A stretch of DNA of 64,000 bases from an uncultured Eubacteriales bacterium (GTDB lineage: Bacteria; Bacillota; Clostridia; Monoglobales; CAYZNM01). The stretch lies in NCBI GenBank assembly GCA_964479875.1, contig CAYZNM010000013.1, positions 21,573 through 85,572 of the forward strand, given 5' to 3'. Positions within the stretch are counted from its first letter, which is position 1, and every line of letters begins with the position of its first letter. This document shows, in pieces, positions 1,011 to 53,592 of the stretch. The notes beneath the pieces are model-generated. The model was not told where the DNA came from, searched no databases, and worked only from the letters and a program-made list of their open reading frames with translations. The translations under genes were made by a program, and so were the position numbers.

Positions 1011-1080
1011 TCAATATTTATTGAAAGGGGTGATTGCGGAAGTTATCACACGCAATGCTTACTATCAAAAAATAAATTAT

Positions 1081-2940: not shown

Positions 2941-2960
2941 GAATAGCAATTAGCGGCAGG

Positions 2961-2984
2961 TGGGACGCTCACGCGGCGTCCCAT
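2961..2984 (+). terminator. Stem-loop (gggacgc ... gcgtccc) after the SBP gene; possible weak terminator or attenuator.
   Basis: 7-bp GC-rich inverted repeat with a 7-nt loop followed by a weak T-rich tract (attt). Confidence 0.35.
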
Positions 2985-3029
2985 TTGCATAATAAGACGT
3001 AGACTAATAAAAGACAATCGGAGAGTAAT

Positions 3030-4049: not shown

Positions 4050-4056
4050 ATCAAAC

Positions 4057-4086
4057 GGGCGGATAATATCCGCCCATACATTTTTA
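4057..4086 (+). terminator. Rho-independent terminator after the GH130 gene.
   Basis: Hairpin gggcggat-aat-atccgccc followed by a T-run (acattttta). Confidence 0.55.
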
Positions 4087-4099
4087 TTGGAGAGTCATT

Positions 4100-5491: not shown

Positions 5492-5500
5492 GAGGTAACT

Positions 5501-8042: not shown

Positions 8043-8082
8043 AAAAAATACCACCACGCAAATCGCATGGTGGTATTTTTTA
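8043..8082. terminator. Bidirectional rho-independent terminator between the convergent GH31 and activase genes.
   Basis: A-run, hairpin ataccacca-(11 nt loop)-tggtggtat, then T-run. The flanking runs let it work in both orientations. Confidence 0.7.
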
Positions 8083-26873: not shown

Positions 26874-27674
26874 TTATTTTGTGAGCTTGCGAAGTCTTAC
26901 AACGCGCTTGGGGCATACCTCTAAGCATTTGCGGCAGTTGGTGCATTTTTCGGGGTCTACGGTCGCAAGGTTGTTGGCGATTGTGATTGCTTCAGCTTCG
27001 CAGGATTTCGCGCACAGGCGGCAACCTATGCAACCGATTGCGCATTGATTCTTCACAACGCCGCCCTTTTCTGTGTTGGCGCAGCCTACGTATACTTTGG
27101 ACGCGTGCGGAAGCATTGCGATAACCTTTTTGGGGCAGGATTTTACGCACGCACCGCAGCCTGTGCATTTGGATTCGTCTATCACTGCGACGCCGCTTTC
27201 CATTACGATTGCGTCGAATTTGCAAGCGGAAACGCATGTGCCGTAGCCTAGGCAGCCGCTGGCGCAAGCTTTGGGGCCGCCGCCTAGCCTTGACGCGGAC
27301 ACGCAATCATGCTCGCCGTCGTAGAAGTATTTGTTTATCGCTTGCTTGTCTGTGCCTACGCAGCGTACGCGCGCAGTCATGCGCACGGCTTTTTCTGCCG
27401 CGACGCCCATTATCTTGCTGATTTGGTCGACGCATTCTTGTCCGCCTGCGCTGCATAGCGTTAGCGCAGCCTTGCCTTCTACTACCGCGTTTGCATACGC
27501 GGAGCAGCCTGCGTATCCGCAGCCGCCGCAGTTTGCCGAGGGCAATGCTTCCATTATAAGCGGCACGCGCTCGTCAACTTTAACCTCAAATATTTTTCCG
27601 CATACGGCGAGCGCAAGCCCAAGCAGCAAGCCCATTCCGCCTAGCGAAATTGTAGCGTACAATATATTATTCAT
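26874..27674 (-). CDS. rnfB: Rnf electron-transport complex subunit B.
   Basis: N-terminal TM anchor, 'CGGCGYAGC' cluster, and multiple CxxCxxCxxxCP 4Fe-4S ferredoxin motifs. Confidence 0.85.
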   Translation of the reverse strand: MNNILYATISLGGMGLLLGLALAVCGKIFEVKVDERVPLIMEALPSANCGGCGYAGCSAYANAVVEGKAALTLCSAGGQECVDQISKIMGVAAEKAVRMTARVRCVGTDKQAINKYFYDGEHDCVSASRLGGGPKACASGCLGYGTCVSACKFDAIVMESGVAVIDESKCTGCGACVKSCPKKVIAMLPHASKVYVGCANTEKGGVVKNQCAIGCIGCRLCAKSCEAEAITIANNLATVDPEKCTNCRKCLEVCPKRVVRLRKLTK

Positions 27675-27713
27675 AATTATTACCTCTAAATTAGCGCGTA
27701 ATGCGCAGTCGCG

Positions 27714-28292
27714 TTAAATTTTTATTCCCGAGAAGCCCATGAACGCAATCGCAATAAGTCCGGCGGATATAAGCGCAATCGGGAAGCCTTGCAGGGGCTT
27801 CGGCACATCGGCAAGTATCAAGCGTTCGCGTACGCCTGCCATGAGTACCATCGCAAGCGTGAAGCCGATTCCGGCTGTTGCGCCGTAGGATACTGCTTCG
27901 GCGAAGTTGTAGCCTTTGTCTATGTTGAGCAGTGTTACGCCTAATACGGCGCAGTTCGTGGTGATAAGCGGAAGGTATATGCCTAATGCTTGATACAAGC
28001 CTTGGCTGTATCGTTGCAGGAACATTTCTACCACCTGCACCAGCGACGCGATTACCAATATAAATGCAATCGTCTGCAAATAATCAAGCTCAAACGGCAC
28101 AAGTATAAGGCTGTTCACAAGCCACGTAATCGCCGACGCAAGCGACATAACGAATATAACTGCCATGCCCATGCCGAGCGCAGTGTCAAGCTTCTTCGAC
28201 ACGCCCAAGAAAGGGCATATGCCTAAGAACTTCACTACTACAAAGTTTTCAACTAAAATCGCGGTCAACGCGATGTATATGATGTTGTTCAT
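27714..28292 (-). CDS. rnfA: Rnf complex subunit A.
   Basis: '[21 protein letters not shown]' is the RnfA/NqrE signature. 6-TM, 192 aa. Confidence 0.85.
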
Positions 28293-28936
28293 GCTTTTTT
28301 CCTCATGGTAACAGCGTTAATCACGCCGATGATTATGCCCAGTACGATAAAGCTTCCGGCAGGCAGTATGAATATCAGCGCAGGCATGAAGCCCTCTCCG
28401 AACAAGGATATGCCCAGAATGCTTCCGTTGCCGAGAATCTCGCGCACTGCCGCTATTATGATAAGCGCGGCCGTGAAGCCTAGCCCCATCGTAAGTCCGT
28501 CCAACGCGGACAGCCCTACGCCGTTTTTGCTTGCAAAGCTTTCCGCGCGCGCAAGGATTATGCAGTTAACCACGATAAGCGGAATGAATATGCCAAGCGA
28601 TTTGGATATTTCCGGGAAATAAGCTTTTAGCAGAATGTCAATCATGGTAACAAAGCCTGCTATGATTATGATGTAAGCCGCGATGCGAATTTTCGCAGGG
28701 ATAAATTTGCGCAGCAGCGATATTACCATGTTGGAGCAGATTAGCACTATGCTGGCAGATAAGCCCATGCCGATTGCGTTTATGACGGAGGTCGTGGTCG
28801 CAAGCGTGGGGCACATGCCTAGAAGCTGCACGTATACGGGATTTTGCTTGATGAGCCCGTTTTGCAGCATTGATTTTATTGTGGGTGTTTTGGTCATTTT
28901 TACCTCTATTGTGTTAGTTTGTATCAAAATCAACAA
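28289..28936 (-). CDS. rnfE: Rnf complex subunit E.
   Basis: '[18 protein letters not shown]' RnfE/NqrD signature. Start overlaps the rnfA stop. Confidence 0.85.
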
Positions 28937-29111
28937 AGTCCTCTTCGGCTAATTCCTCACTCCGGTTGATTGCTTCTATTTCATCAGGGAGCGGGTCATC
29001 TTCGGGGTACATTCCCATCAAAATACAAAACAACTCATTGAATTTCGATTCATCGATTTGTTCTATCATCTGTTGAAGCATTTGTTTTGTAACTTCCATC
29101 TTCATATTCAT
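28914..29111 (-). CDS. Small acidic hypothetical protein (65 aa) embedded between rnfG and rnfE.
   Basis: The ORF overlaps the rnfG stop by 4 nt and the rnfE start by 23 nt, which fits translational coupling. Highly acidic C-terminus ([12 protein letters not shown]). No known family recognised. Confidence 0.35.
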   Translation of the reverse strand: MNMKMEVTKQMLQQMIEQIDESKFNELFCILMGMYPEDDPLPDEIEAINRSEELAEEDFVDFDTN

Positions 29112-29647
29112 TTTCCTTGTGCGATTTGAATCGCATTCGCTACGCCTTCGCGTACGGCGTTGGACGTAATTGTCGCGCCGGAGATTGCTTCGACTTCGGT
29201 CGCGGGGTTTGTTACGCCTTTCTTTATCACAAGGTCGCTACCCTTGCCTACGAATTGCGTGAGGAAGGATTCGTTTTCGGCGTTGGAGCCTAGACCTGGG
29301 GTTTCGCTCATTTCAAGTATGGTTAAGCCTACGACTTTGTAGTCGCCGTCTAGGCCTACCATCAGCACGACGTCGCCGCCGTAGCCTTTGCCTGCGGCTG
29401 TTACGGCGTAGTATTTGTCGCCGGAGTTGGTTGTGATAACGCGTACGCCTTGCTTATTTTCGTCTTGTTCAACCGAGAGAATTTCGCGTCCTGGGATTGG
29501 CACTACCTTTTCTACAGCTGCTTCCTCTGCTTTTAATTGGTTTTCGGCGATTTTATCTTTGGTCAGCATGTTTGTCAGCGACAACATGAGCGCGATAACT
29601 AAGCTAATCAAGCATAGCTTTAACGCGATAACAGCAAAATTACCCAT
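29108..29647 (-). CDS. rnfG: Rnf complex subunit G (FMN-binding).
   Basis: N-terminal TM and the FMN-attachment region 'AISGATITSNAV' (S/T-G-A-T flavinylation motif). Confidence 0.8.
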   Translation of the reverse strand: MGNFAVIALKLCLISLVIALMLSLTNMLTKDKIAENQLKAEEAAVEKVVPIPGREILSVEQDENKQGVRVITTNSGDKYYAVTAAGKGYGGDVVLMVGLDGDYKVVGLTILEMSETPGLGSNAENESFLTQFVGKGSDLVIKKGVTNPATEVEAISGATITSNAVREGVANAIQIAQGK

Positions 29648-30635
29648 TCGCAGTCACCGCCTTTTTGCCTTTTGTGCCGAAACGTCGCGGCTTGATGTAT
29701 TTGTCAATCAGCGGCGTTACAATATTCATCAGCAATATGGAATATGACACGCCCTCAGGATAACCGCCGAGTAGTCGTATGAACACAGTTATGCAGCCTG
29801 CGCCTATTCCGAAAATAATCATTCCTTTGCGCGTAACAGGCGTGGTCGTGTAGTCTGTAGCCATGAAAAATGCACCGAGGAATAAGCCGCCTGTGAGTGT
29901 ATGCTCAAGCCATTCGCCGGTGAAAAATCCATCCGCGCCGAATATGAAACCAAGCAACGCCACTGTGCCAATCATGGCTACAGGCGTATGTAATGTAATT
30001 ACTCGCCTAAACAACAGATATGCCGCGCCGATTAATATCGCGAGCTTGGACGTTTCGCCGATACAGCCGCCGATATTTCCGATGAATAAATCGAGATACT
30101 TAGGCATATCGCCCTCGGCTAAGCCTTTCATAATCGCAAGCGGAGTTGCTGATGAAACCGCATCGTTTACAAAAAGCGACAGCTTTGGGAAAGCAGCGAC
30201 GAATCCGCCTGTAACAAACGCAGGCCAGCAGGCTGTTAAAAACGCGCGCCCTGCCAACGCAGGATTCACGATGTTCTGCCCTAATCCGCCGAAGCACATC
30301 TTTACAATTACAATCATAAACAACGCGCCTACAACAGGCACCCATAACGGCACTGTCACAGGCAGGTTAAATGCAAGCAGCATTCCCGAAACGATCGCCG
30401 AGCCGTCCTTAACTGTAGTAGGCTGCTTTGTCGCAACGCACCATAGCATTTCAAACAAAACGCTCGCGGCAACTGTTACCGCTGTAACAACAGCAGCGCG
30501 GTACCCGAAAAAGTACACGCCCGCGACAAGCATGGGCAGCATTGCGATAACCACGTCAAACATGACAAAGCTTGTGTTGCTCCGCGCACGTATATGAGGT
30601 GGCTGTGATACTGTCAATAATTCGCTCATCTTCAT
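29640..30635 (-). CDS. rnfD: Rnf complex subunit D.
   Basis: Polytopic membrane protein with the 'FFMATDYTTTPVT' FMN-binding threonine motif of RnfD/NqrB. Confidence 0.85.
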   Translation of the reverse strand: MKMSELLTVSQPPHIRARSNTSFVMFDVVIAMLPMLVAGVYFFGYRAAVVTAVTVAASVLFEMLWCVATKQPTTVKDGSAIVSGMLLAFNLPVTVPLWVPVVGALFMIVIVKMCFGGLGQNIVNPALAGRAFLTACWPAFVTGGFVAAFPKLSLFVNDAVSSATPLAIMKGLAEGDMPKYLDLFIGNIGGCIGETSKLAILIGAAYLLFRRVITLHTPVAMIGTVALLGFIFGADGFFTGEWLEHTLTGGLFLGAFFMATDYTTTPVTRKGMIIFGIGAGCITVFIRLLGGYPEGVSYSILLMNIVTPLIDKYIKPRRFGTKGKKAVTANG

Positions 30636-33324: not shown

Positions 33325-33359
33325 TATAGACAGGCTTGCGCTGGCAAGCCTGTCGTTTT

Positions 33360-34898
33360 TTAGTATGGATTAGCCGCGTCCATGTCCCATGCGGTGATGT
33401 TCGCGATTGTGCTGTTTTCGGCGAAAATCGATATGCCGCAGCCTAGCTGCGTTGGGTATGCACGGCGGCAGATTGCTTGACGCTCGTTTGCGTATACTTC
33501 GATTACGGATTTGTCTATGAAAATATTTAGGGTAAGGGTTTCGTTCGGCGATAGCTCGAATGGGGCGGACTCTACGGCGGGGCGGCCTATGCTGCCGCAT
33601 TTGGTTGTGTCCATGGCGAGTTGCTTTGCCGTGGGGTCGTAGTAGACTTCGGCGTATTCGTCGCCGTCAGGAGATACGCGCAGACGTGCGCCAATTTTGC
33701 CCGATACGTTTTCGGCGGTGAGTGTAATTTCGCAGGATTCGCCGTTTGTGCCGCGCAAGCTATATCCGGCTTCATCTAGGGTAACTCTTCCTATGTTATT
33801 ATCGTTGTAGCGCAGGGTGCGCATTTCGTCGGCAGGAGCCATTCGCAGAGTATTTGTTGCGGCGTCAAGCCATAGCAGGCGCGGCATTCCGTATACTCCG
33901 CTCCAGCCGCGCTCGTCTTCGGCAGGGGGATTGTCTAGCAGCCATGCCCACATTATGTGCCTGTTGCTTGGGTCGAGGATTGCTTCGGGAGCGAAGTAGG
34001 TGTTGTCTGTCCATGTCATTCTGCCGTGAGTTTCGGGGGTGAAGATGTCGCGGGATTTGTCGTAGTCGCCGATGTAGTATTGGCAGCCTTTGTTGTGTGC
34101 TATGAAAAGTTGCAGGTATTTGTCGCTTAGTTTGCCGCCTTGCTTTGATAGCGGGAGGGGCAGGAAGCTGGGGCACATGTCGTCCTCGGATTCGTCCGTC
34201 CACTTATTGCTTGCGTCGCGCTCGTAGAATCGGTGCAGGAATTTCCAAGACTTTAGGTCGTCCGACTCGAACAGGTCTACCCAATCGCCGCGATATTTCG
34301 CAGGGGAATCCTCTTGCCGCCCGTATCTTTCAAGTGCAAGCAGGTTGCCTGCCTGCATGTAGTATTTGCCGTCCTTTTTCCAGATGTTGCTTGGGTCGGC
34401 ACAAGATATAGGCTCGCCGTCTGCCATTGCTGTGCCGTAGCCTTCGCACTTGATTGCGAACTCCGGCATTATTTCCCAATTCTCGTACATTGGGTCGCTG
34501 CTTTTGGCAATGCGGATTCCGCCGTCGCTGCTTTCGTCCGAGATGAAGTCCCAGAATGAGATGTATGCCGTGCCGTCGTCGTCAACGAATGCGCCGCCGC
34601 TGAAACAGCCGCGTGCGTTTTCACCCGGAGTGATACAATCAGGGTGATGTCGCCAATGCACTAAATCCGCCGACGAGATATGCCCCCAACAGAATCCGCG
34701 CTGCATGTGATTGTACAAATACATCAGGTGGTAGCGTCCGTTTGCGTAGAATCCGCCATTTGGGTCGCCGGGCATACCCATGCCTTCGGGTATCGCAAAG
34801 TGATACATCGGACGGTAGGGGTCTGCAAGCAGTTTTTCGCGGTAGTCCTTTACAGTTGCTGCAAGCTCGATTAACTTTTCCATTCTTCCTCCGTGCAT
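33360..34898 (-). CDS. GH32-family glycoside hydrolase (beta-fructofuranosidase/levanase-like).
   Basis: 'YHF...PGDPNG...GRYHLMYLY' (NDPNG block with the nucleophile Asp), 'WGHISSADLVHWRH' (GH32 WGHA.S.DLVHW block), 'FSGGAFVDD'. The WMNDPNG motif is divergent (MPGDPNG). Confidence 0.65.
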   Translation of the reverse strand: MHGGRMEKLIELAATVKDYREKLLADPYRPMYHFAIPEGMGMPGDPNGGFYANGRYHLMYLYNHMQRGFCWGHISSADLVHWRHHPDCITPGENARGCFSGGAFVDDDGTAYISFWDFISDESSDGGIRIAKSSDPMYENWEIMPEFAIKCEGYGTAMADGEPISCADPSNIWKKDGKYYMQAGNLLALERYGRQEDSPAKYRGDWVDLFESDDLKSWKFLHRFYERDASNKWTDESEDDMCPSFLPLPLSKQGGKLSDKYLQLFIAHNKGCQYYIGDYDKSRDIFTPETHGRMTWTDNTYFAPEAILDPSNRHIMWAWLLDNPPAEDERGWSGVYGMPRLLWLDAATNTLRMAPADEMRTLRYNDNNIGRVTLDEAGYSLRGTNGESCEITLTAENVSGKIGARLRVSPDGDEYAEVYYDPTAKQLAMDTTKCGSIGRPAVESAPFELSPNETLTLNIFIDKSVIEVYANERQAICRRAYPTQLGCGISIFAENSTIANITAWDMDAANPY

Positions 34899-34902
34899 AT
34901 AT

Positions 34903-36378
34903 TTATTCGGATGATTCGGATTTTTTCTCCCAGATTCGGCTTTCTTGCAGTATGTCGATGATGTCCTTGTCGAGTGCGCCTTCCTCCGACATTTTGTAGA
35001 GTATTGATAAGGCTTTTTCGGGCGGCATTGGTTGCTTGTAGGGTCTGTCGTCGGCTGTTAGGGCGTCGAATACGTCGATTACGGCGAGTAGGCGCATTTC
35101 TATGTCAAGGTCGCTTCCGCCGATTTTGTTGGGGTAGCCTTTGCCGTCTACGCGTTCGTGGTGGCTTTCTGCCCAGCGTGTCACCTTGGAGTAGTGCTTG
35201 CTGAATTTTATTTTGCGCAGGAGTTTGCCCGTGAGGATTACATGGCTTTCTATGACTTTGCGCTCTTCGGGGGTGAGTGTGCCGCGGACGATTAGTAGGT
35301 TGTATAGCTCATCTTGAGTGAGCCACGGCTTTTCGGTTGCGTCGGTGTCGATGTATTTCTTTTCGCCTAGTTGCTTTATGCGTTCAATTGTTTCGGGTGG
35401 ATTGAAGCCGGCGGAATTTGCCGTTTTGATTAGAGCGAGGGCTTCGGCGGCTTCGGCCACGATTGCGTCGCATTCGGCGGCGGATATTGCGCCTTCGTGC
35501 ATACGGAGTTTTGCGATGAGGGTTATTTTCTCGAACCTGTACTCAATGTCCTTTAGCTTGCTGTCAAGGCGCGTCGCCTTGTCCATGATTTCGAGGGGGG
35601 TTGCGATTTTGCCTGCGTCGTGCAGGTAGGCTGCCATGACAAGCTGCTCCATGTCGCTATCGGAAATAGGCGGGTCTTGGTCATTGTGTGCCGCGCGTTC
35701 GTTTATATCCTGCGCAAGCAGCTTGGTATATTTTGCGACATTGCGTGTGTGGTTCGCGTTATAAGGGGAACGTTCGTCGATTGCGGCAGCTAACAGCTCG
35801 ATTACCGAATTGAGCAAGTCTTTAATCTCGCGTGTGTACTCGAGGTTTGTTATTGCAATCGCAGCTTGTGAAGCCAGCGACTGTACGACTTTGTGCAGCT
35901 CCTTGTCGAACTCTATGACATTGCCGTCGCCGTCCTGCGCGTTCATTAATTGCAGCACTCCGTTAAGCTCGTCTTGATTATTTTGCAGCGGCACGACTAA
36001 CATCGAGGTCGTCTTATATCCAGTCATCGCGTCATACCTTCGCGGACCTGAAAAGTCGAACTCCTTACAGTTATACACATCGGCAATATTTACAAGATGG
36101 TTATGTATCGCAGTGTACGCACAAACATTCTCCTCCTTCAACTCAACAGGTGGCAATCCGATAGGCTCGCCAAGCCCGCCGAGGTATGTGTTCAGGGTGT
36201 TGTTGCGCATTATAACAAAATTCAACTTATCCCCGTCGTACATATACAGCGTACCTGCGTCGCAGCCTGTAATTGCCATAGCTGAGGATAGGATTAAGTC
36301 GAACAGCTTCTTATGGTCGCGCTGAGCGGCCATTTGAATGCCTATATCAATAATACTGTTTAAACCTGAATTTGTCAT
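34903..36378 (-). CDS. GAF domain-containing HD-GYP phosphodiesterase (cyclic-di-nucleotide signalling).
   Basis: N-terminal GAF-like region. HD motif 'AAYLHDAGKIATP' and 'HHERVDGKGYP' (HD-GYP signature), then 'IDVFDALTADDRPYK'. Unusually long insert between the HD and GYP segments. Confidence 0.75.
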   Translation of the reverse strand: MTNSGLNSIIDIGIQMAAQRDHKKLFDLILSSAMAITGCDAGTLYMYDGDKLNFVIMRNNTLNTYLGGLGEPIGLPPVELKEENVCAYTAIHNHLVNIADVYNCKEFDFSGPRRYDAMTGYKTTSMLVVPLQNNQDELNGVLQLMNAQDGDGNVIEFDKELHKVVQSLASQAAIAITNLEYTREIKDLLNSVIELLAAAIDERSPYNANHTRNVAKYTKLLAQDINERAAHNDQDPPISDSDMEQLVMAAYLHDAGKIATPLEIMDKATRLDSKLKDIEYRFEKITLIAKLRMHEGAISAAECDAIVAEAAEALALIKTANSAGFNPPETIERIKQLGEKKYIDTDATEKPWLTQDELYNLLIVRGTLTPEERKVIESHVILTGKLLRKIKFSKHYSKVTRWAESHHERVDGKGYPNKIGGSDLDIEMRLLAVIDVFDALTADDRPYKQPMPPEKALSILYKMSEEGALDKDIIDILQESRIWEKKSESSE

Positions 36379-37208
36379 AGTGTGAACTCTTCTCCTTCCC
36401 TACCAAGCGCAAATTTTATGGGTAGGTTTGATGTGGCTTTGTCTATGTCGTGTTGGCGATTGTCGAGTGCGTTGTCGTCGGCGTTTGGGTCGTGGTGGAT
36501 AAAAAGCATTTGTTTGACTGATGCGGCTTTTACAATTGAAACGCCGCACTCCCATGTGGAGTGTCCCCAGCCTTGCTTGCTGAATTTGCCGCCCCTGTTG
36601 AAGCTTGCCTCGTCATACGTTGCGTCGAACAGCATTAAGTCAGAGCCGCGCGCAAATTCCACAAGCGCGCTATCCGGCACTAATTCCGCCTCGTAGTCAA
36701 AGCAGCACACCACGCTTTTGCCAAAGCAGGAGAGCTTGTACAACGTGCATTCATTCGGGTGAATGCTGCGCATTGTCGACACAATCACATCACCAATGCA
36801 AAAGCTTTCGCCCACGACAATATCGCGGTACGCTATCTTCGCGCCGAAATGCTCAATCCCAATCGGAAAATACGGCGCGGACATAAGCCGCGACAGCTGC
36901 TCCCTTATGCTGAGTCCACCCCTACTCTCGCCGTAAATCGTCGCGGTGACGCTTGGATTAAACAGGTGCTGGCACAGCGTAGTGCCGTACACATGGTCGT
37001 AGTGCATATGCGTAAGCAGCAGGTGAAAGTCGCACGGCGCAGGCAAATACTGCCGCAGCCGCATAATGCCCGTGCCGCCGTCCACCACTATATTCTGCTC
37101 GCCTATCTGAATTAACACACAAGTTGTGTTGCCGCCGTATTTTATAAATTCAGAGCCGGACACAGGTATCGACCCGCGTACGCCCAGCAGTTTTACAGTG
37201 AATTCCAT
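36375..37208 (-). CDS. MBL-fold metallo-hydrolase.
   Basis: 'LLLTHMHYDHVYG' (HxHxDH) metal-binding motif. Overlaps the HD-GYP gene start by 4 nt. Confidence 0.7.
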   Translation of the reverse strand: MEFTVKLLGVRGSIPVSGSEFIKYGGNTTCVLIQIGEQNIVVDGGTGIMRLRQYLPAPCDFHLLLTHMHYDHVYGTTLCQHLFNPSVTATIYGESRGGLSIREQLSRLMSAPYFPIGIEHFGAKIAYRDIVVGESFCIGDVIVSTMRSIHPNECTLYKLSCFGKSVVCCFDYEAELVPDSALVEFARGSDLMLFDATYDEASFNRGGKFSKQGWGHSTWECGVSIVKAASVKQMLFIHHDPNADDNALDNRQHDIDKATSNLPIKFALGREGEEFTL

Positions 37209-37209
37209 A

Positions 37210-38481
37210 TCATTTTTTCCTGTCCGTTACCCAATTTTCCTTTACGGATTGCTTGTTGCGTGCAATTGCCAACGCTTCGGAAGGCACATCGTCTGTGATA
37301 GTGGAGCCTGCCGCAGTGAATGAGTTTTCGCCCACGACAACAGGTGCTACTAAGTTTGAATTGCTGCCTACGAATGCGCCGTCTTTTATTATAGTGCGGC
37401 TTTTAGCTATGCCGTTGTAGTTTGCCGTGATTGCTCCGCAGCCGAAGTTTACCTTTTTGCCCATGTCCGTGTCGCCTACATACGCAAGGTGCGGCACTTT
37501 ACTTCCGTCGCCGACTACAGAGTTTTTCACCTCAACAAAGTCGCCTATCTTCACGTTGTCGCCGATAACGCTTCCAGGACGAATGTACGCGAACGGGCCT
37601 ACGCTAACCTTGTTGCCGACCGTAGAGCTTAAGATTACGGCGTTGCTGATATGGCAATCCTCGCCGATAACCGAATCGGTTATCTCCACATTCGAGCCAA
37701 TCGTCGTACCCGAGCCTATCTTAACCGCGCCGCGCAAAATGCATCCTGGCAGCAGCGTCACGTCCTTGCCGAACGACACATTGCCCTCGATGAAAACCGA
37801 ATCTGGGTCATACATCGTAACTCCTGCTATCATGTGCAGGTTGTTAATGCGCTCACGCATAATCCTGCTAGCGTTCATCAAATCAAGCTTGGTGCGCACT
37901 TGAATAAGCTCACTCTCATCCGCAACAGAGTAATATCCTATTTTATTGCGCATCGTGCGCATAAGCTCAATGCACTCACTTAACATCAATTCACCCGCCG
38001 CATTATGCACAGACACGCAGCCTAAGCTTGCAAGCAGCGCAGGCACGCGGCATATTATCGCGCCGCGGAATGCTATGTCGCGGCGATTCGCATGTTCCGT
38101 TTTCGCCAAGATGGTGAGGTCATTGCCCTCCTGCATATGCTTCGCGTATGCGTTTTGTATAGTATCGGCGCGTACAAGCGGAATATTCGCGCTAAGGATA
38201 ATCACGTTGGACGCTCCGTCCATATGCGGCATACATAGTTGCACGGCGTGCGCTGTACCCAACTGCTTTTCCTGCACGACATAGTTGATTCCGCTGTGCG
38301 TACACTCGCGCATAGCGTCAATGTTGCCGCTGTTGCCTACGACAACAAGCCGACCTTGTATATTGTGCGCGGCGTTTACGACGTGCATAAACATAGGTGC
38401 GGTGCATATATTGTGCAGGGACGCACTGACCCTGCTGTTGAACCCAGTGGAGCTTCCTCCGGCTAATATGATTGTGAGCAT
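37210..38481 (-). CDS. GlmU-like bifunctional protein (sugar-1-phosphate nucleotidyltransferase fold plus left-handed beta-helix acetyltransferase) with a degenerate nucleotidyltransferase motif.
   Basis: N-terminal 'ILAGGSSTGFNSR' replaces the canonical L-A-G-G-x-G-T-R motif. C-terminal half is full of hexapeptide repeats. 423 aa. Confidence 0.55.
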   Translation of the reverse strand: MLTIILAGGSSTGFNSRVSASLHNICTAPMFMHVVNAAHNIQGRLVVVGNSGNIDAMRECTHSGINYVVQEKQLGTAHAVQLCMPHMDGASNVIILSANIPLVRADTIQNAYAKHMQEGNDLTILAKTEHANRRDIAFRGAIICRVPALLASLGCVSVHNAAGELMLSECIELMRTMRNKIGYYSVADESELIQVRTKLDLMNASRIMRERINNLHMIAGVTMYDPDSVFIEGNVSFGKDVTLLPGCILRGAVKIGSGTTIGSNVEITDSVIGEDCHISNAVILSSTVGNKVSVGPFAYIRPGSVIGDNVKIGDFVEVKNSVVGDGSKVPHLAYVGDTDMGKKVNFGCGAITANYNGIAKSRTIIKDGAFVGSNSNLVAPVVVGENSFTAAGSTITDDVPSEALAIARNKQSVKENWVTDRKK

Positions 38482-38499
38482 AAATTGCTACCTCCCATT

Positions 38500-39297
38500 T
38501 TAAATCGACAATTCGTTTCGTGCCGTGAATAGGTATTGCTGCGCTATCCCTTGGTAGGGTGCAAAGTGCGCGGCGGCGTAGGCTTCGCACTCTTTCTTTG
38601 GTACATTGTATAATTCTTCCATCATGCGGTAAATCCATACGTCTTTCGGGAAAACTTCTTGGCGTGCGTATGAGTAAAGCATTATGCAGTCGGCTACTTT
38701 TTCGCCTATGCCGTGGTATTGTGTGAGCAGCTTCCGTAAGGTGGGTGTATCTATTTCGCTGTAGCTTTCTAGGTCGATGTTATTGTGTACTGTGCGTCGT
38801 GCGGCTTCCAGTATATATTTTGCCCTGAATCCTGCTTTTATCACGTCAAGGTCAGGCAAAGTCAGCTCCGCGATTTGTTCGGGTGTGGGGAATGCGTAAA
38901 GGTCGCCGTCGATTCGGTCGCCGAAGTTTAGGCATAAGCTTTCGACTATCTTAGTTATGCGCGGTATGTTGTTACAGGCGGAGATTATGAAGCTGATTAG
39001 CGTTTCCCACTTATTTTGGTTAAGTATATGTAGCCCGTTGCAGTATTCGATTGCGCGCTCCATTATCGGGTCGTGACTTAGATATGCCGCCGCGTTTTTG
39101 TACAGCTCCTCGTTGTGCAGGTCGAGATAGCGCGAAAAATAAGGGACATCGCCGTCTATGCAGACGCATTCTCCCTTCTTATATACGTATGCGGCTTTAT
39201 CTGCCGATATGCAGAGGTAGCCGTCGCCTATTCTTCTAAAGCGGAACACCTGCCCGCATTCCATTGTATGTTTTAAATTTATGTCAGATTTTATCAT
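38500..39297 (-). CDS. ogg: 8-oxoguanine DNA glycosylase / AP lyase (Ogg-type, HhH-GPD superfamily).
   Basis: OGG_N-like start 'ECGQVFRF'. Helix-hairpin-helix 'LRKLLTQYHGIGEKVADCI' followed by the catalytic Asp region. Confidence 0.7.
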   Translation of the reverse strand: MIKSDINLKHTMECGQVFRFRRIGDGYLCISADKAAYVYKKGECVCIDGDVPYFSRYLDLHNEELYKNAAAYLSHDPIMERAIEYCNGLHILNQNKWETLISFIISACNNIPRITKIVESLCLNFGDRIDGDLYAFPTPEQIAELTLPDLDVIKAGFRAKYILEAARRTVHNNIDLESYSEIDTPTLRKLLTQYHGIGEKVADCIMLYSYARQEVFPKDVWIYRMMEELYNVPKKECEAYAAAHFAPYQGIAQQYLFTARNELSI

Positions 39298-39343: not shown

Positions 39344-40054
39344 TCATTTGGCGAAGTTGAAATCATTAAGTATTCCGAAAAGCTCATCAAGAGAGCTTAT
39401 GGTATGGTTTTGGCTAAATTCCTTAACGGTATCGCTTCTGTTAATCAATACCGAAACTGCTCGAATATTGTTAGCTCCTAAAATATCTTTTTCTTCATCT
39501 CCGACATATATCATTTCATTTGGCGATATATAGAAATACTCTACTATTTTCAAAAATCCCGATTTATTAGGTTTTCTATAACCTACATCTACTGAAGTTA
39601 AAGTTAAATCAATATATTCTGAAAGCATTTTAAAGTCTTTCAATGAAAATTCGTTATCCATACCATAGGCAACATCGGTCAAAACTGCAATTTTTATCCC
39701 CATGTTTTTAAGTACTTTTAGTGTTTCGATTGTTTCGGGAAATGGGTAAGCATTTACCTGAAAGAAAGAGTAAAAAGCAGATTTAATGGCGTGTATGTTT
39801 GCACTCGAACAGTTCCATGCTGTAATAATTTCATTGAAAATAGTATTAGAAACGACTTCAATCTCTCGATAATTTATTCTTGTGTTGTATTTTGTAAGAA
39901 TTTCTATAGCATTACCTATCATACAATCCGATAAAACCATATTGCAATCAGTGGCTATTTTACAAAGTGCATGGCGGTATAATGAAGCCCAATTTAATGG
40001 AGTATCATATTTTATTAAAGTATGTCCAACATCAAACGCTACGACTTTTATCAT
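39344..40054 (-). CDS. HAD-superfamily hydrolase.
   Basis: Motif I 'VAFDVGHTL' (DxG/D), 'KIAVLTD' and 'YVGDEEKDI' motif IV. Markedly AT-rich compared with neighbours. Confidence 0.7.
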   Translation of the reverse strand: MIKVVAFDVGHTLIKYDTPLNWASLYRHALCKIATDCNMVLSDCMIGNAIEILTKYNTRINYREIEVVSNTIFNEIITAWNCSSANIHAIKSAFYSFFQVNAYPFPETIETLKVLKNMGIKIAVLTDVAYGMDNEFSLKDFKMLSEYIDLTLTSVDVGYRKPNKSGFLKIVEYFYISPNEMIYVGDEEKDILGANNIRAVSVLINRSDTVKEFSQNHTISSLDELFGILNDFNFAK

Positions 40055-40140: not shown

Positions 40141-40169
40141 TTGCATATTCAAGGCAATGCTGATATAAT
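40141..40169 (+). promoter_or_regulatory. Candidate sigma-A promoter for ychF.
   Basis: TTGCAT-17 nt-TATAAT about 60 nt upstream of the ychF ATG. Confidence 0.35.
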
Positions 40170-40226
40170 TATAGCATAATTAATTTGGATAAGTAAAGTA
40201 AAAATAATTAGAAATGAGATTGCATA

Positions 40227-42736: not shown

Positions 42737-43612
42737 ATGCTGCCTTCCCTTTTGCTTATATACTACGGCGACTGCCGCGATATGATTGACTTTTACTCAA
42801 CCATTTTCGACAATATCGAAAAGAAAATTCAAACATACTCCGAAATGCCTTTGTTTGAATCATATGGTATCAAAGAGCAGGAGCTTGACATGGTTTGGCA
42901 AGCGTCGCTAAAAATCCATTATGGAAATAACGCTGTCAGCCTAAAGCTGTCGGACTCAATGCTAACTGCAATGCGCAGCCCCATTACCTATCAAGGTCAA
43001 GCATACAATCCTCTAATTTGCATAGAGCACAACGACGAACAATACGTACGCGATTTATTTGCCAATCTGTATTGCGGCGAACATAGTTTTGATGAAATTC
43101 AAAAAGGCATTCATAGCGATAAGTACGGAATACGATGGGTTTACAAAAAGAGCGATAATTGCAGCATATATTATTGCTTTGAATTCAACGGAGATTGCAT
43201 TGATGTAGTAGAGTATATTAAAGATACATTCATAGTAAATTCAAGGGAATTGATAACTTATGCGGATTCGCCGCATGTTGATAAAATAAAGTTGTCTGCT
43301 CCGAATAAAATTTACAGTGCTGTACTGTCTTTTGAGCACGGCGGTTGCTGCTATGCGTTAAAGTTTTCCGACAACTTAGATTCTGCCATCCACGGCTTTA
43401 ATGGTTATAGTCCCGATGCTAAGTTGTCCTATCAAATTATATTGGCAGTAGAAGACGATGACGCAGAGCAGTTAATCCAATCCTTTGGCAGATTAAGTGT
43501 CGGCGCGAAATTAAACAAGCCAATCGCGCGCAATGCAGACGGAAGTGTCAATGGCAGTTTGATAGACAGGTACGGCTTAGTGTGGGAACTTATGACCTGC
43601 AATAATTCTTAA
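42737..43612 (+). CDS. Hypothetical protein with tandem VOC/PhnB-like (glyoxalase/bleomycin-resistance fold) halves.
   Basis: 'LLIYYGDCRDMIDFYSTIF ... DKYGIRWVY' and again 'YALKFSDNLDSAIHGFNG ... DRYGLVWELM' resemble the PhnB pattern (L-x-F-x-G-x-[AC]-EEA-x-x-FY ... DKFG-x-SWQI) twice. Sits 15 nt after the response regulator. Confidence 0.4.
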   Translation: MLPSLLLIYYGDCRDMIDFYSTIFDNIEKKIQTYSEMPLFESYGIKEQELDMVWQASLKIHYGNNAVSLKLSDSMLTAMRSPITYQGQAYNPLICIEHNDEQYVRDLFANLYCGEHSFDEIQKGIHSDKYGIRWVYKKSDNCSIYYCFEFNGDCIDVVEYIKDTFIVNSRELITYADSPHVDKIKLSAPNKIYSAVLSFEHGGCCYALKFSDNLDSAIHGFNGYSPDAKLSYQIILAVEDDDAEQLIQSFGRLSVGAKLNKPIARNADGSVNGSLIDRYGLVWELMTCNNS

Positions 43613-46323: not shown

Positions 46324-46380
46324 CACGCCGCAGCAAAAATGCCCCTGTGCATACGCATAGGGGCGTCAAAGGAGAACAGT

Positions 46381-47004
46381 ATGAATAACTTAAACATCAA
46401 GCAAATAGAAGTAGGCAAAAACAGCACAAACTGCTACATTTTGTCGTTAGGCGAGGATTGCGTCATCATAGACGCAGGCGGCGACAGCGACGTAATTATG
46501 AACTATATCGCAGAGGAATGCCTGAAGCCGCACTGCGTTGTACTAACGCACGGTCACTTCGACCACTTCATGGGGGCGAAGCAAGTCGCCGACGCCTACT
46601 CCATTCCGATAATCTGCCATGAAGCCGAGTTCAACATCTTGCAGGACGCAAACAACAACGGCTCCAACCTCGTACTGCGCAAAAACCTCACGCTCATTCC
46701 GGATAAAACAGTTGCCGACGGCGATATAATCACCGCAGGTGGATTGTCGCTCAAATGTATGCACACGCCCGGACATACCATAGGCGGCATGTGCTTACTG
46801 CACGAGGGCTTCGCATTCACAGGCGACACACTTTTCTTTGAATCCATCGGGCGCACAGACCTACCCACCGGCGACTACGACACAATCGTGCAATCCATCA
46901 AAAAGCTGTACACCCTAGACGAAGGCACAATCTGCTACCCAGGACACGGTCCGCGCACCACAATCGCATACGAAAAGGAAAACAACGCGTATGTGCAAAG
47001 CTAA
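46381..47004 (+). CDS. MBL-fold metallo-hydrolase (glyoxalase-II-like).
   Basis: 'VVLTHGHFDHFMG' HxHxDH motif plus later His/Asp ligands. Start moved to the MNNLNIKQ Met with an AAGGAG RBS (ORF-track start at 46339). Confidence 0.7.
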   Translation: MNNLNIKQIEVGKNSTNCYILSLGEDCVIIDAGGDSDVIMNYIAEECLKPHCVVLTHGHFDHFMGAKQVADAYSIPIICHEAEFNILQDANNNGSNLVLRKNLTLIPDKTVADGDIITAGGLSLKCMHTPGHTIGGMCLLHEGFAFTGDTLFFESIGRTDLPTGDYDTIVQSIKKLYTLDEGTICYPGHGPRTTIAYEKENNAYVQS

Positions 47005-48091
47005 CGCGTGGGGCAAGCTGACAGGCGTACGCCCAACTAAGCTGTACATGGATTATGTAAACCGATACGGCGCAGCAGACGCATCAGAATTATTCATGCG
47101 CGACTACGCCGTATCGCAAGCAAAAACAAAACAGCTTGCCGAAATCGCGCAGCAGGAAAAGCAAATAATTGCCGAGGTAGGCGAAAATTCTGCCGCGGTT
47201 TATGTAAATATACCTTTCTGCCCATCGCGCTGCCTTTATTGTTCGTTTGTGACTTGCATTAAGCAAACGCCTAAGATTATGGACGATTATGTTGCCGCTG
47301 TGATGCGCGAAATTGAGCGGCGGCAGTTTCCTGCGGCGAAGATTGCGTCTGTGTACATCGGCGGCGGCACGCCTATTTCAATCGGCGCGGCGCGATTGAG
47401 TGCGATTATTTCAGCATTGAAGCAGCGGTATGAAATTGCGCCCGACGTTGAATTTACTGTAGAAGCAGGGCGACCCGATTGCATTGACGGCGAAATATTG
47501 GACATGCTGCAATCCCACGGCGTAACGCGAATCTGCATTAATCCGCAAACGCTTAATGATTCCACGCTGGAATTAATCGGGCGCAAGCATTCGGCGGAGG
47601 ATTTTTTCGCAGCATATGCTATGTCACGCGGCAGATTCCGCATAAACTGCGACATAATCGTAGGGCTTCCCAACGAGAGCATGGACGACTTTACTGCAAC
47701 TTTAGACGGAGTACTGTCGTGCGAACCGCAGGGGATTACCGTGCATACATTATGCGTAAAACGCGGCTCGCGCTTGAATGAATATATCGGCGACTACGAC
47801 CTATCGACCGGGAACACTCGCGAAATGACCGACTACGCCTATCGCAAGCTATCGACAAGCGGCTACCCTCCCTACTACCTCTATCGTCAAAAGAAAACGC
47901 TCGGCAACCTCGAAAACATCGGCTACAGCAAGCCCTCGCACCATTGTCTGTACAACATCATCAGCATTGCCGAAAGCCACAGCATTTACGCCTACGGCGC
48001 AGGCGCAGTGACAAAAATTGTCGCGGACAATATCACGCGCGAGTGGAACAACAAAGAACCGATGGCATACATCAGGGAGCAGCTCACTTGA
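46991..48091 (+). CDS. Radical SAM protein of the coproporphyrinogen-III oxidase-like (HemN/HemW/HemZ) family.
   Basis: 'VNIPFCPSRCLYCSF' CxxxCxxC motif and 'VYIGGGTP' SAM-binding block. About 70-aa N-terminal extension before the radical-SAM core. Confidence 0.65.
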   Translation: MCKANAWGKLTGVRPTKLYMDYVNRYGAADASELFMRDYAVSQAKTKQLAEIAQQEKQIIAEVGENSAAVYVNIPFCPSRCLYCSFVTCIKQTPKIMDDYVAAVMREIERRQFPAAKIASVYIGGGTPISIGAARLSAIISALKQRYEIAPDVEFTVEAGRPDCIDGEILDMLQSHGVTRICINPQTLNDSTLELIGRKHSAEDFFAAYAMSRGRFRINCDIIVGLPNESMDDFTATLDGVLSCEPQGITVHTLCVKRGSRLNEYIGDYDLSTGNTREMTDYAYRKLSTSGYPPYYLYRQKKTLGNLENIGYSKPSHHCLYNIISIAESHSIYAYGAGAVTKIVADNITREWNNKEPMAYIREQLT

Positions 48092-49146: not shown

Positions 49147-50667
49147 CTACAATCCCTCGATGGTGCGCAGATTGCACGCTTGCGCGGCTTGCGCGAATGT
49201 GAGCGCGTTGCCGCCGATTGCTTTGTGCAGCTGCGTTGTGTAGAATATGTTGTCGGCGAAGAAATCAAGCGGTGGGGCTTCGTGCGCGATTTGTCCGTCG
49301 AAAACTAGGGCGCAGCGGTCGGCGGCTTGTGCCGCGAAATCCAGGTCGTGGGTTGTGATTATTGTTGTGATTTGCAGTTCGTGAAGCAGTCGCAGCAGCG
49401 TTTGCTTTGTGTTGTCGTCCATGCCTTTGGTTGGCTCGTCGAGAAGCAGCAGCTGCGGCTTTTCAAGCAATGCGGCGGCAATCGCGACACGCTGACGCTC
49501 GCCGCCGCTTAGGTCGTATGGGTGCGCATTTAGCAAATGCGACAGGTTGAATTGCTCGATGATTTTATGCTTTTGCTCACATTCTATCAGCTCATCTCCC
49601 ACTTTTTCGTGGCGAAAGTATGCGTTGATATTTTGTGGAATGTATGCCGCTTTAAGCTTGGGTGATTTACCCGAGGTAGGCTTGATGATTCCTGCGATAA
49701 TCTTCAGCAGCGTAGTTTTGCCGCTACCGTTGCCACCGATTATGCACAAGCATTCGCCGCTGTAAATCGTGAGGTTCAGGCGATTTAGTACAGGTGCGCT
49801 GTCTTTGTTGTAGATTTGTATTATGTCAACTAGCTTAAATAGTACATCGCGCTTTTGTGGAATTTCAGCTATAACCTTCGCGGCAGGCAGACTTTCCGCA
49901 AGCGCACGGCTCTCCTTCACAGAAAGCGGCGGATTATCACCGTCGGTCGCGGCAAAATATAGCTTTTGCAGCGGTGGAATATGCGCGTATGCTTGCTTAT
50001 CCCTTTTCTGCCAAATATCGCGCAGCACAGCCTTAGGGCTGCCACTGTAGCGCATTGTCGTATTCAGCACGAACATTTTGTCCGCATAGGGCAGTATGTT
50101 CTCAATATTATGCTCCGCAATCAGCACAGTTATGCCGCACTCGCGGTTGAGCCGCAGCACTAGGTCGAGCAAATCCCGCGCGTTAATCGGGTCTAGCATA
50201 GACAGCGGTTCGTCAAGCAGAAGCAGCTTCGGCTGCGTCATCAAAGCCGACGCAAGCGTCACAAGCTGCTTCTGTCCTCCCGATAAAGTTTCGCAGTCTG
50301 CGTCGAGCAATCGTTCGATTCCAAGAAAGCTCGCGGTTTCCGCAAGCCGCTTCCGCATTATAGCATTGGGCAAGCCGTGATTTTCCATAGGGAAAACAAG
50401 TTCCTGCCGCACAGTGCTTCGCACAATCTGCGTGTTAGGGTTCTGTGATACAATTGCAATCTCACTGTCGTCGCAGCCGATGTATATCTCTCCCGATACA
50501 GTGCCGTTAGGGCGCAGCGCTTTCTTTAGCAAATGCAGCAGCGTAGACTTTCCGCTGCCCGAAATTCCGCACAACGCGCCAATCTCGTGCCGCGCAAGCG
50601 ATAGTGTGACGTTGGATAGTATCGGCGTATTCTCATATGAAAAATGTAGGCTGTTAATCTTTAACAT
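49147..50667 (-). CDS. Fused tandem ECF-type ABC ATPase (EcfA1-EcfA2 duplication in one polypeptide).
   Basis: Two complete nucleotide-binding domains: Walker A 'GISGSGKST' and 'GGNGSGKTT', signatures 'LSGGQKQLV' and 'LSGGERQRV', Walker B 'LLLDEPLSMLD' and 'LLLDEPTKGMD'. Confidence 0.8.
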   Translation of the reverse strand: MLKINSLHFSYENTPILSNVTLSLARHEIGALCGISGSGKSTLLHLLKKALRPNGTVSGEIYIGCDDSEIAIVSQNPNTQIVRSTVRQELVFPMENHGLPNAIMRKRLAETASFLGIERLLDADCETLSGGQKQLVTLASALMTQPKLLLLDEPLSMLDPINARDLLDLVLRLNRECGITVLIAEHNIENILPYADKMFVLNTTMRYSGSPKAVLRDIWQKRDKQAYAHIPPLQKLYFAATDGDNPPLSVKESRALAESLPAAKVIAEIPQKRDVLFKLVDIIQIYNKDSAPVLNRLNLTIYSGECLCIIGGNGSGKTTLLKIIAGIIKPTSGKSPKLKAAYIPQNINAYFRHEKVGDELIECEQKHKIIEQFNLSHLLNAHPYDLSGGERQRVAIAAALLEKPQLLLLDEPTKGMDDNTKQTLLRLLHELQITTIITTHDLDFAAQAADRCALVFDGQIAHEAPPLDFFADNIFYTTQLHKAIGGNALTFAQAAQACNLRTIEGL

Positions 50668-53561: not shown

Positions 53562-53592
53562 TATTTTTCCTTCCATCAATAAGGCTTTGAGG

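Follow-up and report, generated by a model that had tools for sequence, protein, structure and literature searches.

The gene block and its probable transcription unit

The stretch of DNA analysed here (the window) comprises 64,000 nucleotides (nt) of contig CAYZNM010000013.1 from an uncultured Eubacteriales bacterium. The study concerns a block of four minus-strand genes within it: ogg, a glmU-like gene here called glmU', a gene for a metallo-beta-lactamase (MBL)-fold hydrolase and a gene for a GAF-HD-GYP phosphodiesterase. The initial annotation had suggested that these genes form a module for the synthesis and degradation of a nucleotide second messenger. All four open reading frames (ORFs) lie where it had placed them, and their identity was confirmed by Pfam and NCBIfam, with the domains OGG_N and HhH-GPD in Ogg, NTP_transf_3 and Hexapep/Hexapep_GlmU in GlmU', Lactamase_B_2 in the MBL protein, and GAF, HD and HD_5 in the GAF-HD-GYP protein. 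The run of genes, with protein lengths in amino acids (aa), and its flanking signals are as follows:

40168..40197, minus strand: promoter-like site TTTACT-18 nt-TATAAT with a TG ahead of the -10 element, in the divergent HAD/ychF intergenic region (10 of 12 matches)
39344..40054, minus strand: HAD-IA family phosphatase-like hydrolase, 236 aa, first gene of the run, with a strong AGGAGG ribosome-binding site
38500..39297, minus strand: ogg, bacterial Ogg1-type 8-oxoguanine DNA glycosylase, 265 aa
37210..38481, minus strand: glmU' (GlmU-like), 423 aa, with an intact acetyltransferase half and a very probably dead uridyltransferase half
36375..37208, minus strand: MBL-fold phosphodiesterase-type hydrolase, 277 aa, with complete metal ligands
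34903..36378, minus strand: GAF-HD-GYP phosphodiesterase, 491 aa (476 aa if the start is 36333)
33360..34898, minus strand: GH32 beta-fructosidase-like gene, last of the run, with a probable start at 34883
33329..33354, no strand assigned: 11-bp GC-rich hairpin between the convergent GH32 and aldo-keto reductase genes

The tight spacing described previously was confirmed: ogg and glmU' are separated by 18 nt and glmU' and the MBL gene by 1 nt, and the MBL and GAF-HD-GYP genes overlap by 4 nt. The run extends beyond these four genes, with the HAD gene on the same strand 46 nt upstream and the GH32 gene 4 nt downstream (19 nt when its second ATG is used). All six genes lie between the single good promoter-like site and the single strong hairpin, and no terminator was detected inside the run. 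The arrangement HAD-ogg-glmU'-MBL-GAF-HD-GYP-GH32 is probably a six-gene operon, which would start at the promoter-like site 40197-40168 (the probable start of the transcription unit) and end at the hairpin 33329-33354, a probable bidirectional terminator.

Good ribosome-binding sites precede the HAD gene, glmU' (GGGAGG) and the 491-aa start of the GAF-HD-GYP gene. Public gene callers place the latter start 15 codons farther downstream (476 aa); a better Shine-Dalgarno sequence precedes the 491-aa start, and homologues align from residue 1. The start of the GH32 gene is probably 34883, because a GGAGGA ribosome-binding site precedes the second ATG and public calls give a protein of 507 aa.

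The two halves of GlmU'

The features of glmU' that are used below are:

38431..38469, minus strand: degenerate signature loop ILAGGSSTGFNSR, residues 5-17, in which the R18 equivalent is Gly13 and the K25 equivalent is Ala20
37837..38481, minus strand: N-terminal domain, residues 1-215, a degenerate uridyltransferase fold
38071..38106, minus strand: site of a 28-residue deletion, about residues 126-137, which removes the GYGRIxR...IVE(x)KD sugar-binding lobe (G140, E154)
37210..37836, minus strand: C-terminal left-handed beta-helix acetyltransferase domain, residues 216-423

The bifunctional architecture attributed to this protein before was upheld by the NTP_transf_3 and Hexapep_GlmU matches and by the GlmU fold of its AlphaFold model. 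The predicted local distance difference test (pLDDT) value of the model is 91 and falls only at residues 130-140, the deletion site, and the model superposes on the GlmU crystal structures 1G97/1HM0 at a template modelling (TM) score of 0.90. When GlmU' was compared with the GlmU structures of S. pneumoniae, M. tuberculosis and E. coli, the C-terminal ~270 residues aligned with an E-value of ~1e-65; the N-terminal half aligned weakly with the solved GlmUs, in two pieces and with about 30 residues missing.

Residue conservation was analysed in an alignment of 64 sequences, 62 of them canonical GlmUs, and a column was treated as conserved when at least 90% of the canonical sequences agreed. GlmU' keeps 29 of the 63 conserved columns in the N-terminal half and 61 of 67 in the C-terminal half. 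Sites are given in E. coli numbering, based on an E. coli GlmU sequence that is one residue short after position 227, and C-terminal sites were mapped with an offset of -1 and verified by residue identity. The signature motif quoted in the initial annotation is exact (residues 5-17). The loop lacks the signature L-x2-G-x-G-T-R-x(n)-K and reads LAGGSSTGFNSRVSASLH, with the catalytic R18 and K25 replaced by G13 and A20. Both Mg2+ ligands are gone: D105, an Asp in 61 of the 62 canonical sequences, is N99, and N227, an Asn in all 62, is R196. The residues that bind N-acetylglucosamine-1-phosphate (GlcNAc-1-P) have also disappeared, as N169 is F138 and both G140 and E154 fall within the 28 deleted residues; Y197 is a Met.

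All ten acetyltransferase residues examined (R333, E349, K351, H363, Y366, N377, N386, K392, S405 and R440) are present in GlmU', and every residue in contact with glucosamine-1-phosphate (GlcN-1-P) and acetyl-CoA is retained. The same asymmetry is seen in the identity to canonical GlmUs, which is 29% for the N-terminal half (49% in a typical canonical pair) and 55% for the C-terminal half (57% in a typical pair). The ratio of N- to C-terminal identity is 0.53 for GlmU' and 0.34 for its relative P0004 (described below), against a canonical median of 0.87 and minimum of 0.69 among 923 pairs of matched C-terminal identity. As the ratio of GlmU' lies below the canonical minimum, the asymmetry is not explained by divergence of the lineage as a whole.

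These residue losses make it very probable that the uridyltransferase of GlmU' is dead, and the acetyltransferase is likely to be active. The N-terminal half had been proposed to be either inactive or altered in specificity; the first option stands, with decay extending well beyond the signature loop, and the second does not, as the lost residues are those needed by every sugar-1-phosphate nucleotidyltransferase. The proposal of a second-messenger synthase was likewise not supported, since residues common to the sugar-1-phosphate nucleotidyltransferase superfamily are gone, and we consider such an activity of GlmU' highly improbable.

GlmU' scores above the TIGR01173 cut-off (386.4 vs. 366.85 bits), below that of PRK14354 (414 vs. 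450) and below those of all other GlmU equivalogs. Because it passes TIGR01173, annotation pipelines will name it a bifunctional GlmU, and metabolic reconstructions will then wrongly close the pathway to UDP-N-acetylglucosamine (UDP-GlcNAc).

Relatives and genomic context of glmU' and ogg

Among 5.8 billion clustered proteins GlmU' is a singleton, and its next match is a canonical GlmU with 43% identity. The same N-terminal decay was found in only one other of these proteins, P0004, which comes from another metagenome-assembled genome (MAG) and is 48% identical to GlmU' overall. P0004 is the more decayed of the two, keeping 15 of 63 N-terminal and 60 of 67 C-terminal conserved columns. It retains the acetyltransferase residues, with a Cys at S405 that is the majority residue in canonical GlmUs, and has lost the equivalents of the uridine-contacting Q76, G81 and T82. 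The derived residues R196, E169, M166 and C83 are common to both proteins; the derived residues of the pair include Arg at N227, Glu at D199 and Met at Y197. When the N-domain was used as query in an exhaustive HMMER search of 1.84 billion cluster representatives, only GlmU' itself scored below 1e-30, the next match being at 1.8e-20. With no closer degenerate N-domain among these representatives, the clade is real but tiny (two members). P0003 (493 aa), a homologue of canonical type, contains an internal tandem duplication in which 36 residues of beta-helix turns are repeated.

The isolation of GlmU' is a property of its lineage. Ten window proteins were looked up in 90% identity clusters, and the eight that were found are singletons or are clustered only with a variant of their own contig; YchF, IlvD and Rho are among the eight. 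At 90% identity or above, ~15 billion sequences contain no match to any of the eight from a different organism. The organism was seen in one NCBI MAG and in runs SRR10912416-18. The singleton status of its proteins thus points to a rarely sampled lineage. Assemblies of SRR10912416 and SRR10912417, made independently, contain exactly the same GlmU' protein as the NCBI MAG, and glmU' is therefore not an assembly artefact.

In three distant genomes the gene ogg precedes glmU or glmU'. In the P0004 locus the order is relA-ogg-glmU'-phosphoribosyltransferase, with neither an MBL nor an HD-GYP gene, and the Ogg encoded there is 42% identical to that of the window. In the Clostridia MAG locus L006, ogg is followed by canonical glmU-prs-pth. 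Because ogg and glmU are linked in this locus, whose glmU is evidently the housekeeping copy, glmU' is most simply read as a descendant of the housekeeping glmU of Bacillota. For comparison, 80 canonical glmU loci were taken from Bacillota genomes other than the window genome and that of P0004; prs is beside glmU in 67 of them, and an MBL or HD-GYP gene occurs in none. The canonical GlmU P0056, from unrelated samples, stands in a classical purR-spoVG-glmU-prs-pth-mfd locus.

The window Ogg has the OGG_N and HhH-GPD domains and keeps both the catalytic Lys (in GIGEKVADC) and the catalytic Asp (in PKDVW). It matches 4EJY (1e-51) and the Clostridium acetobutylicum Ogg 3F0Z (1e-43) over its full length and shows no notable difference from these bacterial Ogg1-type glycosylases. 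Its TIGR00588 score of 135 is below the 398-bit cut-off, a threshold that is eukaryote-centred.

The MBL hydrolase

The metal ligands H67, H69, D71, H72, H150, D171, H216 and H238 of the MBL protein are invariant in 62 sequences, and its model has a pLDDT of 94. Among solved structures the protein is closest to BA1088 and YhfI and then to RNase Z, PhnP, yeast PDE1 and the phage protein Apyc1. Many homologues match the Pfam family PF23023 Apyc1, and JGI labels the family a PhnP-like 'phosphoribosyl 1,2-cyclic phosphodiesterase'. YhfI prefers cyclic AMP (cAMP) and cyclic GMP (cGMP) as substrates (PMC9117128). Membership in anti-phage defence was considered and rejected: PADLOC gave no matches, so the MBL gene is not a known defence or anti-defence gene.

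The MBL family is widespread, being found in Myxococcota, Smithella, Leptospira and probably cyanobacteria. Relatives that are 32-36% identical stand directly before GAF-sigma54 (AAA+) activators in L116, L124 and four to five other metagenome loci of the series L088-L167, and other relatives adjoin a ribF, aroC or Methyltransf_24 gene.

The GAF-HD-GYP protein

Two parts of the GAF-HD-GYP protein are relevant here:

35845..36321, minus strand: GAF domain, residues 20-178, whose best solved relatives are GAF domains that bind cyclic nucleoside monophosphates (cNMPs)
35299..35556, minus strand: insert of ~86 residues, residues 275-360, between the HD and HHE/GYP parts, present family-wide

The GAF domain matches Pfam GAF, GAF_2 and GAF_3. 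Its nearest solved relatives are PDE5 GAF-A, CyaB2 and PDE2A GAF-B, all of which bind cNMPs, and it also aligns to the GAF domain of PmGH. The catalytic part matches HD_5 with an E-value of 1.6e-32 and contains H210, H253-D254, H379, H406-H407-E408, G414-Y415-P416 and D435, which are conserved across 118 homologues. The insert between HD and GYP that had been pointed out in the initial annotation is real, as the alignment to PmGH (4MCW) stops at residue 274 and restarts at 361, and HD (253-254) and GYP (414-416) are ~95 residues farther apart than in PmGH. It is not an oddity of the window protein: all 118 aligned family members carry it, and it is therefore a family trait. The family is large and Clostridial, with proteins of 480-500 aa that are 45-50% identical over their full length.

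PmGH (4MCW) and Tlr0485 have the same GAF plus HD-GYP architecture and the same HD, HHE and GYP motifs as the window protein, which adds the ~86-residue insert inside the HD-GYP domain when compared with PmGH. A Glu of PmGH that is a ligand of the third metal is replaced by Tyr, as in V-cGAP3 (5Z7C). From its homology to PmGH and V-cGAP3, the window protein is predicted to hydrolyse cyclic di-GMP (c-di-GMP) or cyclic GMP-AMP (cGAMP). Tlr0485 is a cAMP-activated GAF-HD-GYP c-di-GMP phosphodiesterase, and its control by cAMP fits both the type of GAF domain found here and the cyclases that neighbour related loci.

The MBL and GAF-HD-GYP cassette in other genomes

An MBL gene followed by an overlapping or adjacent GAF-HD-GYP gene was found in four further loci (L087, L097, L168 and L170), where the MBL proteins are 34-41% identical to that of the window. 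The HD-GYP proteins of L087, L168 and L170 are 45-50% identical to the window protein, and that of L097 is a phmmer match with an E-value of 3e-128. A CHASE2-Guanylate_cyc gene belongs to the same operon in L168, L169, L084/085, L174/175 and L176; in L168 this class III cyclase comes after the MBL/GAF-HD-GYP pair, within one operon of overlapping genes. The Butyrivibrio locus reads cNMP-binding protein, FecR, MBL and CHASE2 cyclase, and in Agathobacter and three other loci the order is CHASE2 cyclase, AP_endonuc_2, GAF-HD-GYP and a FecR-domain protein. An EndoIV-like TIM-barrel protein (AP_endonuc_2) thus fills the MBL slot before GAF-HD-GYP in some loci, and this alternation suggests that the two proteins are functionally equivalent. 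The view that MBL and GAF-HD-GYP act as a degradation pair gains plausibility from their recurrence together, with overlapping genes and often with a class III nucleotide cyclase.

Taken over L084/L085, L174/L175, L176, L086, L168, L169, L170, L087 and L097, the recurrent Clostridial neighbourhood consists of a CHASE2 cyclase, an AP_endonuc_2 or MBL protein, an insert-bearing GAF-HD-GYP protein, and a large and/or FecR-domain protein. Our sampling of it is limited, and it appears to be undescribed in the literature searched. Such a combination may be a signalling system of Clostridia that has not been described before, in which the HD-GYP protein acts on the product of the cyclase and not on c-di-GMP.

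Among 80 metagenomic MBL loci, a class III cyclase is present in 9 and a cNMP-binding protein in 7, and a GAF-sigma54 activator lies directly downstream in 6-7. None of these three gene types was found in 1.49 Mb around the 80 glmU genes, a control whose weight is reduced by its loci not being taxon-matched to the metagenomic MBL loci.

Two probably unrelated units in one gene block

The results point, with some confidence, to the block being a transcriptional neighbourhood of two unrelated units, ogg-glmU' and MBL plus GAF-HD-GYP, and not a functional module; GlmU' would be an acetyltransferase only, and the cassette would work with cNMPs and c-di-GMP. A check of the co-occurrence of the four genes across genomes showed that ogg-glmU and MBL-HD-GYP both recur, but separately. 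P0004 is encoded beside ogg without MBL or HD-GYP, neither glmU nor ogg occurs in any of the nine other HD-GYP/MBL loci whose surroundings were analysed (L084/085, L086, L087, L097, L168, L169, L170, L174/175 and L176), and the 80 canonical glmU loci have no MBL or HD-GYP gene. The reading of the four genes as one module was thus not borne out; tight gene spacing alone had misled it. In its full form, a GlmU-like enzyme of altered specificity makes a product that MBL and HD-GYP degrade. The close, co-directional spacing speaks for this model, as do a signature that is altered and not absent, the retained uracil-contacting residues of GlmU' and the fact that MBL and HD-GYP are both nucleotide phosphodiesterase families. 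Against it stand the loss from GlmU' of the catalytic Arg and Lys, both Mg2+ ligands and the sugar-binding lobe, the lack in P0004 of both the uridine-binding residues and an MBL or HD-GYP neighbour, the pairing of MBL/HD-GYP cassettes elsewhere with class III cyclases and not with glmU or ogg, and the result from the 80 glmU loci, and we regard the model as very improbable.

The role of GlmU' and the route to UDP-GlcNAc

A PBP5-type D-Ala-D-Ala carboxypeptidase is encoded at 53593-54852 of the window, so the organism makes peptidoglycan and needs UDP-GlcNAc. In the mechanism that we propose, GlmU' would convert GlcN-1-P only to GlcNAc-1-P, and an unlinked uridyltransferase would complete UDP-GlcNAc. 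As the acetyltransferase site is normal and no plausible uridyltransferase chemistry is left, uridylylation would have to come from another protein, for which the candidates are a NagU/UAP-like enzyme, a stand-alone GlmU N-domain protein of ~250 aa or a second full glmU. Stand-alone GlmU N-domains of ~254 aa with intact motifs and no acetyltransferase domain were the top results of the N-domain search (P0255, P0256, P0260, P0261 and P0263), and such natural split-GlmU N-halves could be the partners of an acetyltransferase-only GlmU'. The window also encodes an APH-family phosphotransferase of 319 aa (59701-60660, minus strand). The APH family includes anomeric N-acetylhexosamine and N-acetylmuramic acid kinases, and this protein could feed an alternative route to GlcNAc-1-P.

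Staphylococcus aureus depends on a eukaryote-like NagU because its GlmU has N169S, and many bacteria that carry NagU, which is sporadic in Clostridia, lack GlmU or have only one of its halves (bioRxiv 10.64898/2026.06.23.733835). The position of this crippling Ser variant, N169, is the one occupied by Phe in GlmU'. Listeria GlmR has been reported as an accessory uridyltransferase.

A dead N-domain that was kept, folded and in frame, in two lineages would have a structural or regulatory role; the loss of Q76, G81 and T82 in P0004 makes a shared nucleotide-sensing role doubtful. We tentatively propose, at somewhat less than an even chance, that the window lineage and that of GCA_964412285.1 are without any functional GlmU uridyltransferase, that a non-GlmU enzyme makes their UDP-GlcNAc and that the dead N-domain is a structural or regulatory pseudo-enzyme. 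If so, this would be a naturally occurring, full-length 'half-dead' GlmU.

Several observations tell against these readings of glmU' and its neighbourhood. GlmU' itself keeps the uracil-contacting residues Q76, G81 and T82, and residual nucleotide binding is possible. No partner uridyltransferase of the NagU/UDPGP or NTP_transferase families was found in the window, where nearly all ORFs of at least 150 aa were searched. The genes prs-pth are not downstream of glmU' in either degenerate lineage, and positional orthology with the housekeeping glmU rests on one ogg-glmU-prs-pth example. Co-transcription of the block was inferred from gene spacing and consensus scans.

Since prs-pth does not follow glmU' in either degenerate lineage, glmU' could instead be an accessory paralogue, with a canonical glmU-prs-pth elsewhere in the genome supplying UDP-GlcNAc and GlmU' free to lose its N-terminal activity, either as a spare acetyltransferase or as one of other specificity (e.g., for another hexosamine-1-phosphate). 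We consider this rather unlikely. One-domain relaxed selection is expected after duplication, Clostridium collagenovorans has a full-length GlmU with extra truncated domain copies, and neither degenerate gene precedes prs-pth, which 67 of 80 canonical loci have beside glmU. However, the C-terminal domain is as conserved as in sole-copy GlmUs, all contacts with GlcN-1-P and acetyl-CoA are kept, which argues against both a new specificity and redundancy, and the ogg-glmU linkage is shared with L006, where glmU is clearly the housekeeping gene. A tblastn search of the 64-kb window with two canonical GlmUs found glmU' only; the chances that it is the sole glmU homologue in the genome are about equal either way. 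A decaying pseudogene or an assembly or binning artefact without function is very improbable. The singleton status of GlmU' at 90% identity, the MAG-level data and the highly divergent N-terminal domain would fit it. It is contradicted by the intact ORF of 423 codons with its good ribosome-binding site, by the identical sequence in three assemblies, by normal purifying selection on the C-terminal half, and by an N-terminal half that has kept an open reading frame, a similar length and a confidently predicted fold in two lineages sharing only 48% identity; the other window proteins tested are also singletons.

Compared with the bifunctional GlmUs of E. coli, S. pneumoniae and M. tuberculosis, GlmU' has the common two-domain architecture and fold and an identical acetyltransferase site, but it differs in the lost uridyltransferase residues, the deleted 28-residue lobe and the lack of prs downstream. 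Similar to GlmU', GMPPA, the inactive paralogue of GMPPB, retains a dead nucleotidyltransferase fold together with a left-handed beta-helix. GMPPA, whose paralogue GMPPB is a GDP-mannose pyrophosphorylase, is catalytically inactive, still binds nucleotide sugars and serves as an allosteric regulator. The two cases differ in that the uridine-binding residues are not conserved in the GlmU'/P0004 clade, and the likeness is one of analogy and not of close homology (7D72 is among the Foldseek matches, with a TM score of 0.43). Impaired or partial GlmUs that work with NagU offer a parallel: their uridyltransferase function is weak or absent, a different uridyltransferase is expected to finish UDP-GlcNAc, and acetyltransferase-only forms are also described among them (Fong et al. 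2026). Those cases are either N169S alone (Staphylococcaceae) or truncated and split genes; GlmU', unlike them, is full-length, with an N-domain that is multiply mutated and internally deleted and still folded. To the impaired and truncated forms described recently, GlmU' adds one that is full-length and has a pseudo-uridyltransferase domain.

GlmU is treated as a universal, essential and bifunctional antibiotic target. A wall-bearing bacterium in which the uridyltransferase site of GlmU is lost would be natural evidence for alternative UDP-GlcNAc routes in Clostridia, such as the one shown experimentally for S. aureus in 2026.

The role of the MBL and GAF-HD-GYP cassette

The cassette most likely combines a cAMP-controlled c-di-GMP phosphodiesterase with a cNMP phosphodiesterase, judging from domain types and gene neighbours, and its assignment to cNMP-linked signalling is reasonably probable. 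A cyclic mononucleotide, probably cAMP, would bind the PDE5/CyaB2-type GAF domain and switch on hydrolysis of c-di-GMP by the HD-GYP domain, as in Tlr0485, and the MBL enzyme would remove the cNMP signal. The MBL protein resembles YhfI/BA1088-type MBLs and phage Apyc1 in fold and in its complete set of metal ligands, and the cyclases and cNMP/GAF sensors that accompany its homologues fit cNMP hydrolysis. The recurrent operon suggests cross-talk from cAMP to c-di-GMP in gut Lachnospiraceae and Oscillospiraceae.

This assignment is weakened by the moderate likeness of the MBL protein to YhfI (TM ~0.7, 18% identity), by its score of 49 against the 400-bit cut-off of the NCBIfam cyclic-nucleotide phosphodiesterase NF041851 and by the lack of a PF23023 Apyc1 match at E<=0.01. 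Moreover, no cyclase, FecR, GGDEF or EAL gene was found among nearly all window ORFs of at least 150 aa, nor a c-di-GMP riboswitch in the window. The main rival is a serial pathway without a cyclic mononucleotide, in which HD-GYP makes the linear dinucleotide pGpG from c-di-GMP and the MBL enzyme cleaves pGpG to GMP. Some HD-GYP enzymes do stop at pGpG, the MBL protein belongs to an RNase Z/ElaC-like phosphodiesterase branch that cuts linear phosphodiesters, and the two genes overlap by 4 nt. Nevertheless, in loci without HD-GYP the relatives of the MBL gene repeatedly have class III cyclases, cNMP-binding proteins and GAF-sigma54 activators as neighbours, the MBL protein alternates with the unrelated AP_endonuc_2 TIM-barrel protein before GAF-HD-GYP, and its nearest characterised relatives prefer cAMP and cGMP. 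On this evidence the serial pathway is improbable.

Other features of the window

No riboswitches or other RNAs, the glmS and c-di-GMP types included, were found in the window. Three ORFs are without a Pfam match at E<=1e-6: 42737-43612 (plus strand, 291 aa), 50654-51475 (minus strand, 273 aa) and 52167-53624 (minus strand, 485 aa). The latter two belong to a run that also includes an ABC ATPase, a DUF4430 protein and the PBP5-type carboxypeptidase. A second, unrelated MBL gene (Lactamase_B, 221 aa; 46339-47004, plus strand) overlaps the start of a radical SAM gene (46991-48091, plus strand).

The window looks like a typical anaerobic Clostridia chromosome. It contains a glycan-utilisation cluster at 21-8041 (plus strand) with an ABC permease, a solute-binding protein, GH130 (mannoside phosphorylase family), GH26 (mannanase family) and GH31, a PFL-like glycyl radical enzyme (712 aa) with its radical-SAM activase at 8080-11093 (minus strand), the gene for Rho at 15985-17622 and an Rnf complex at 26874-30635.

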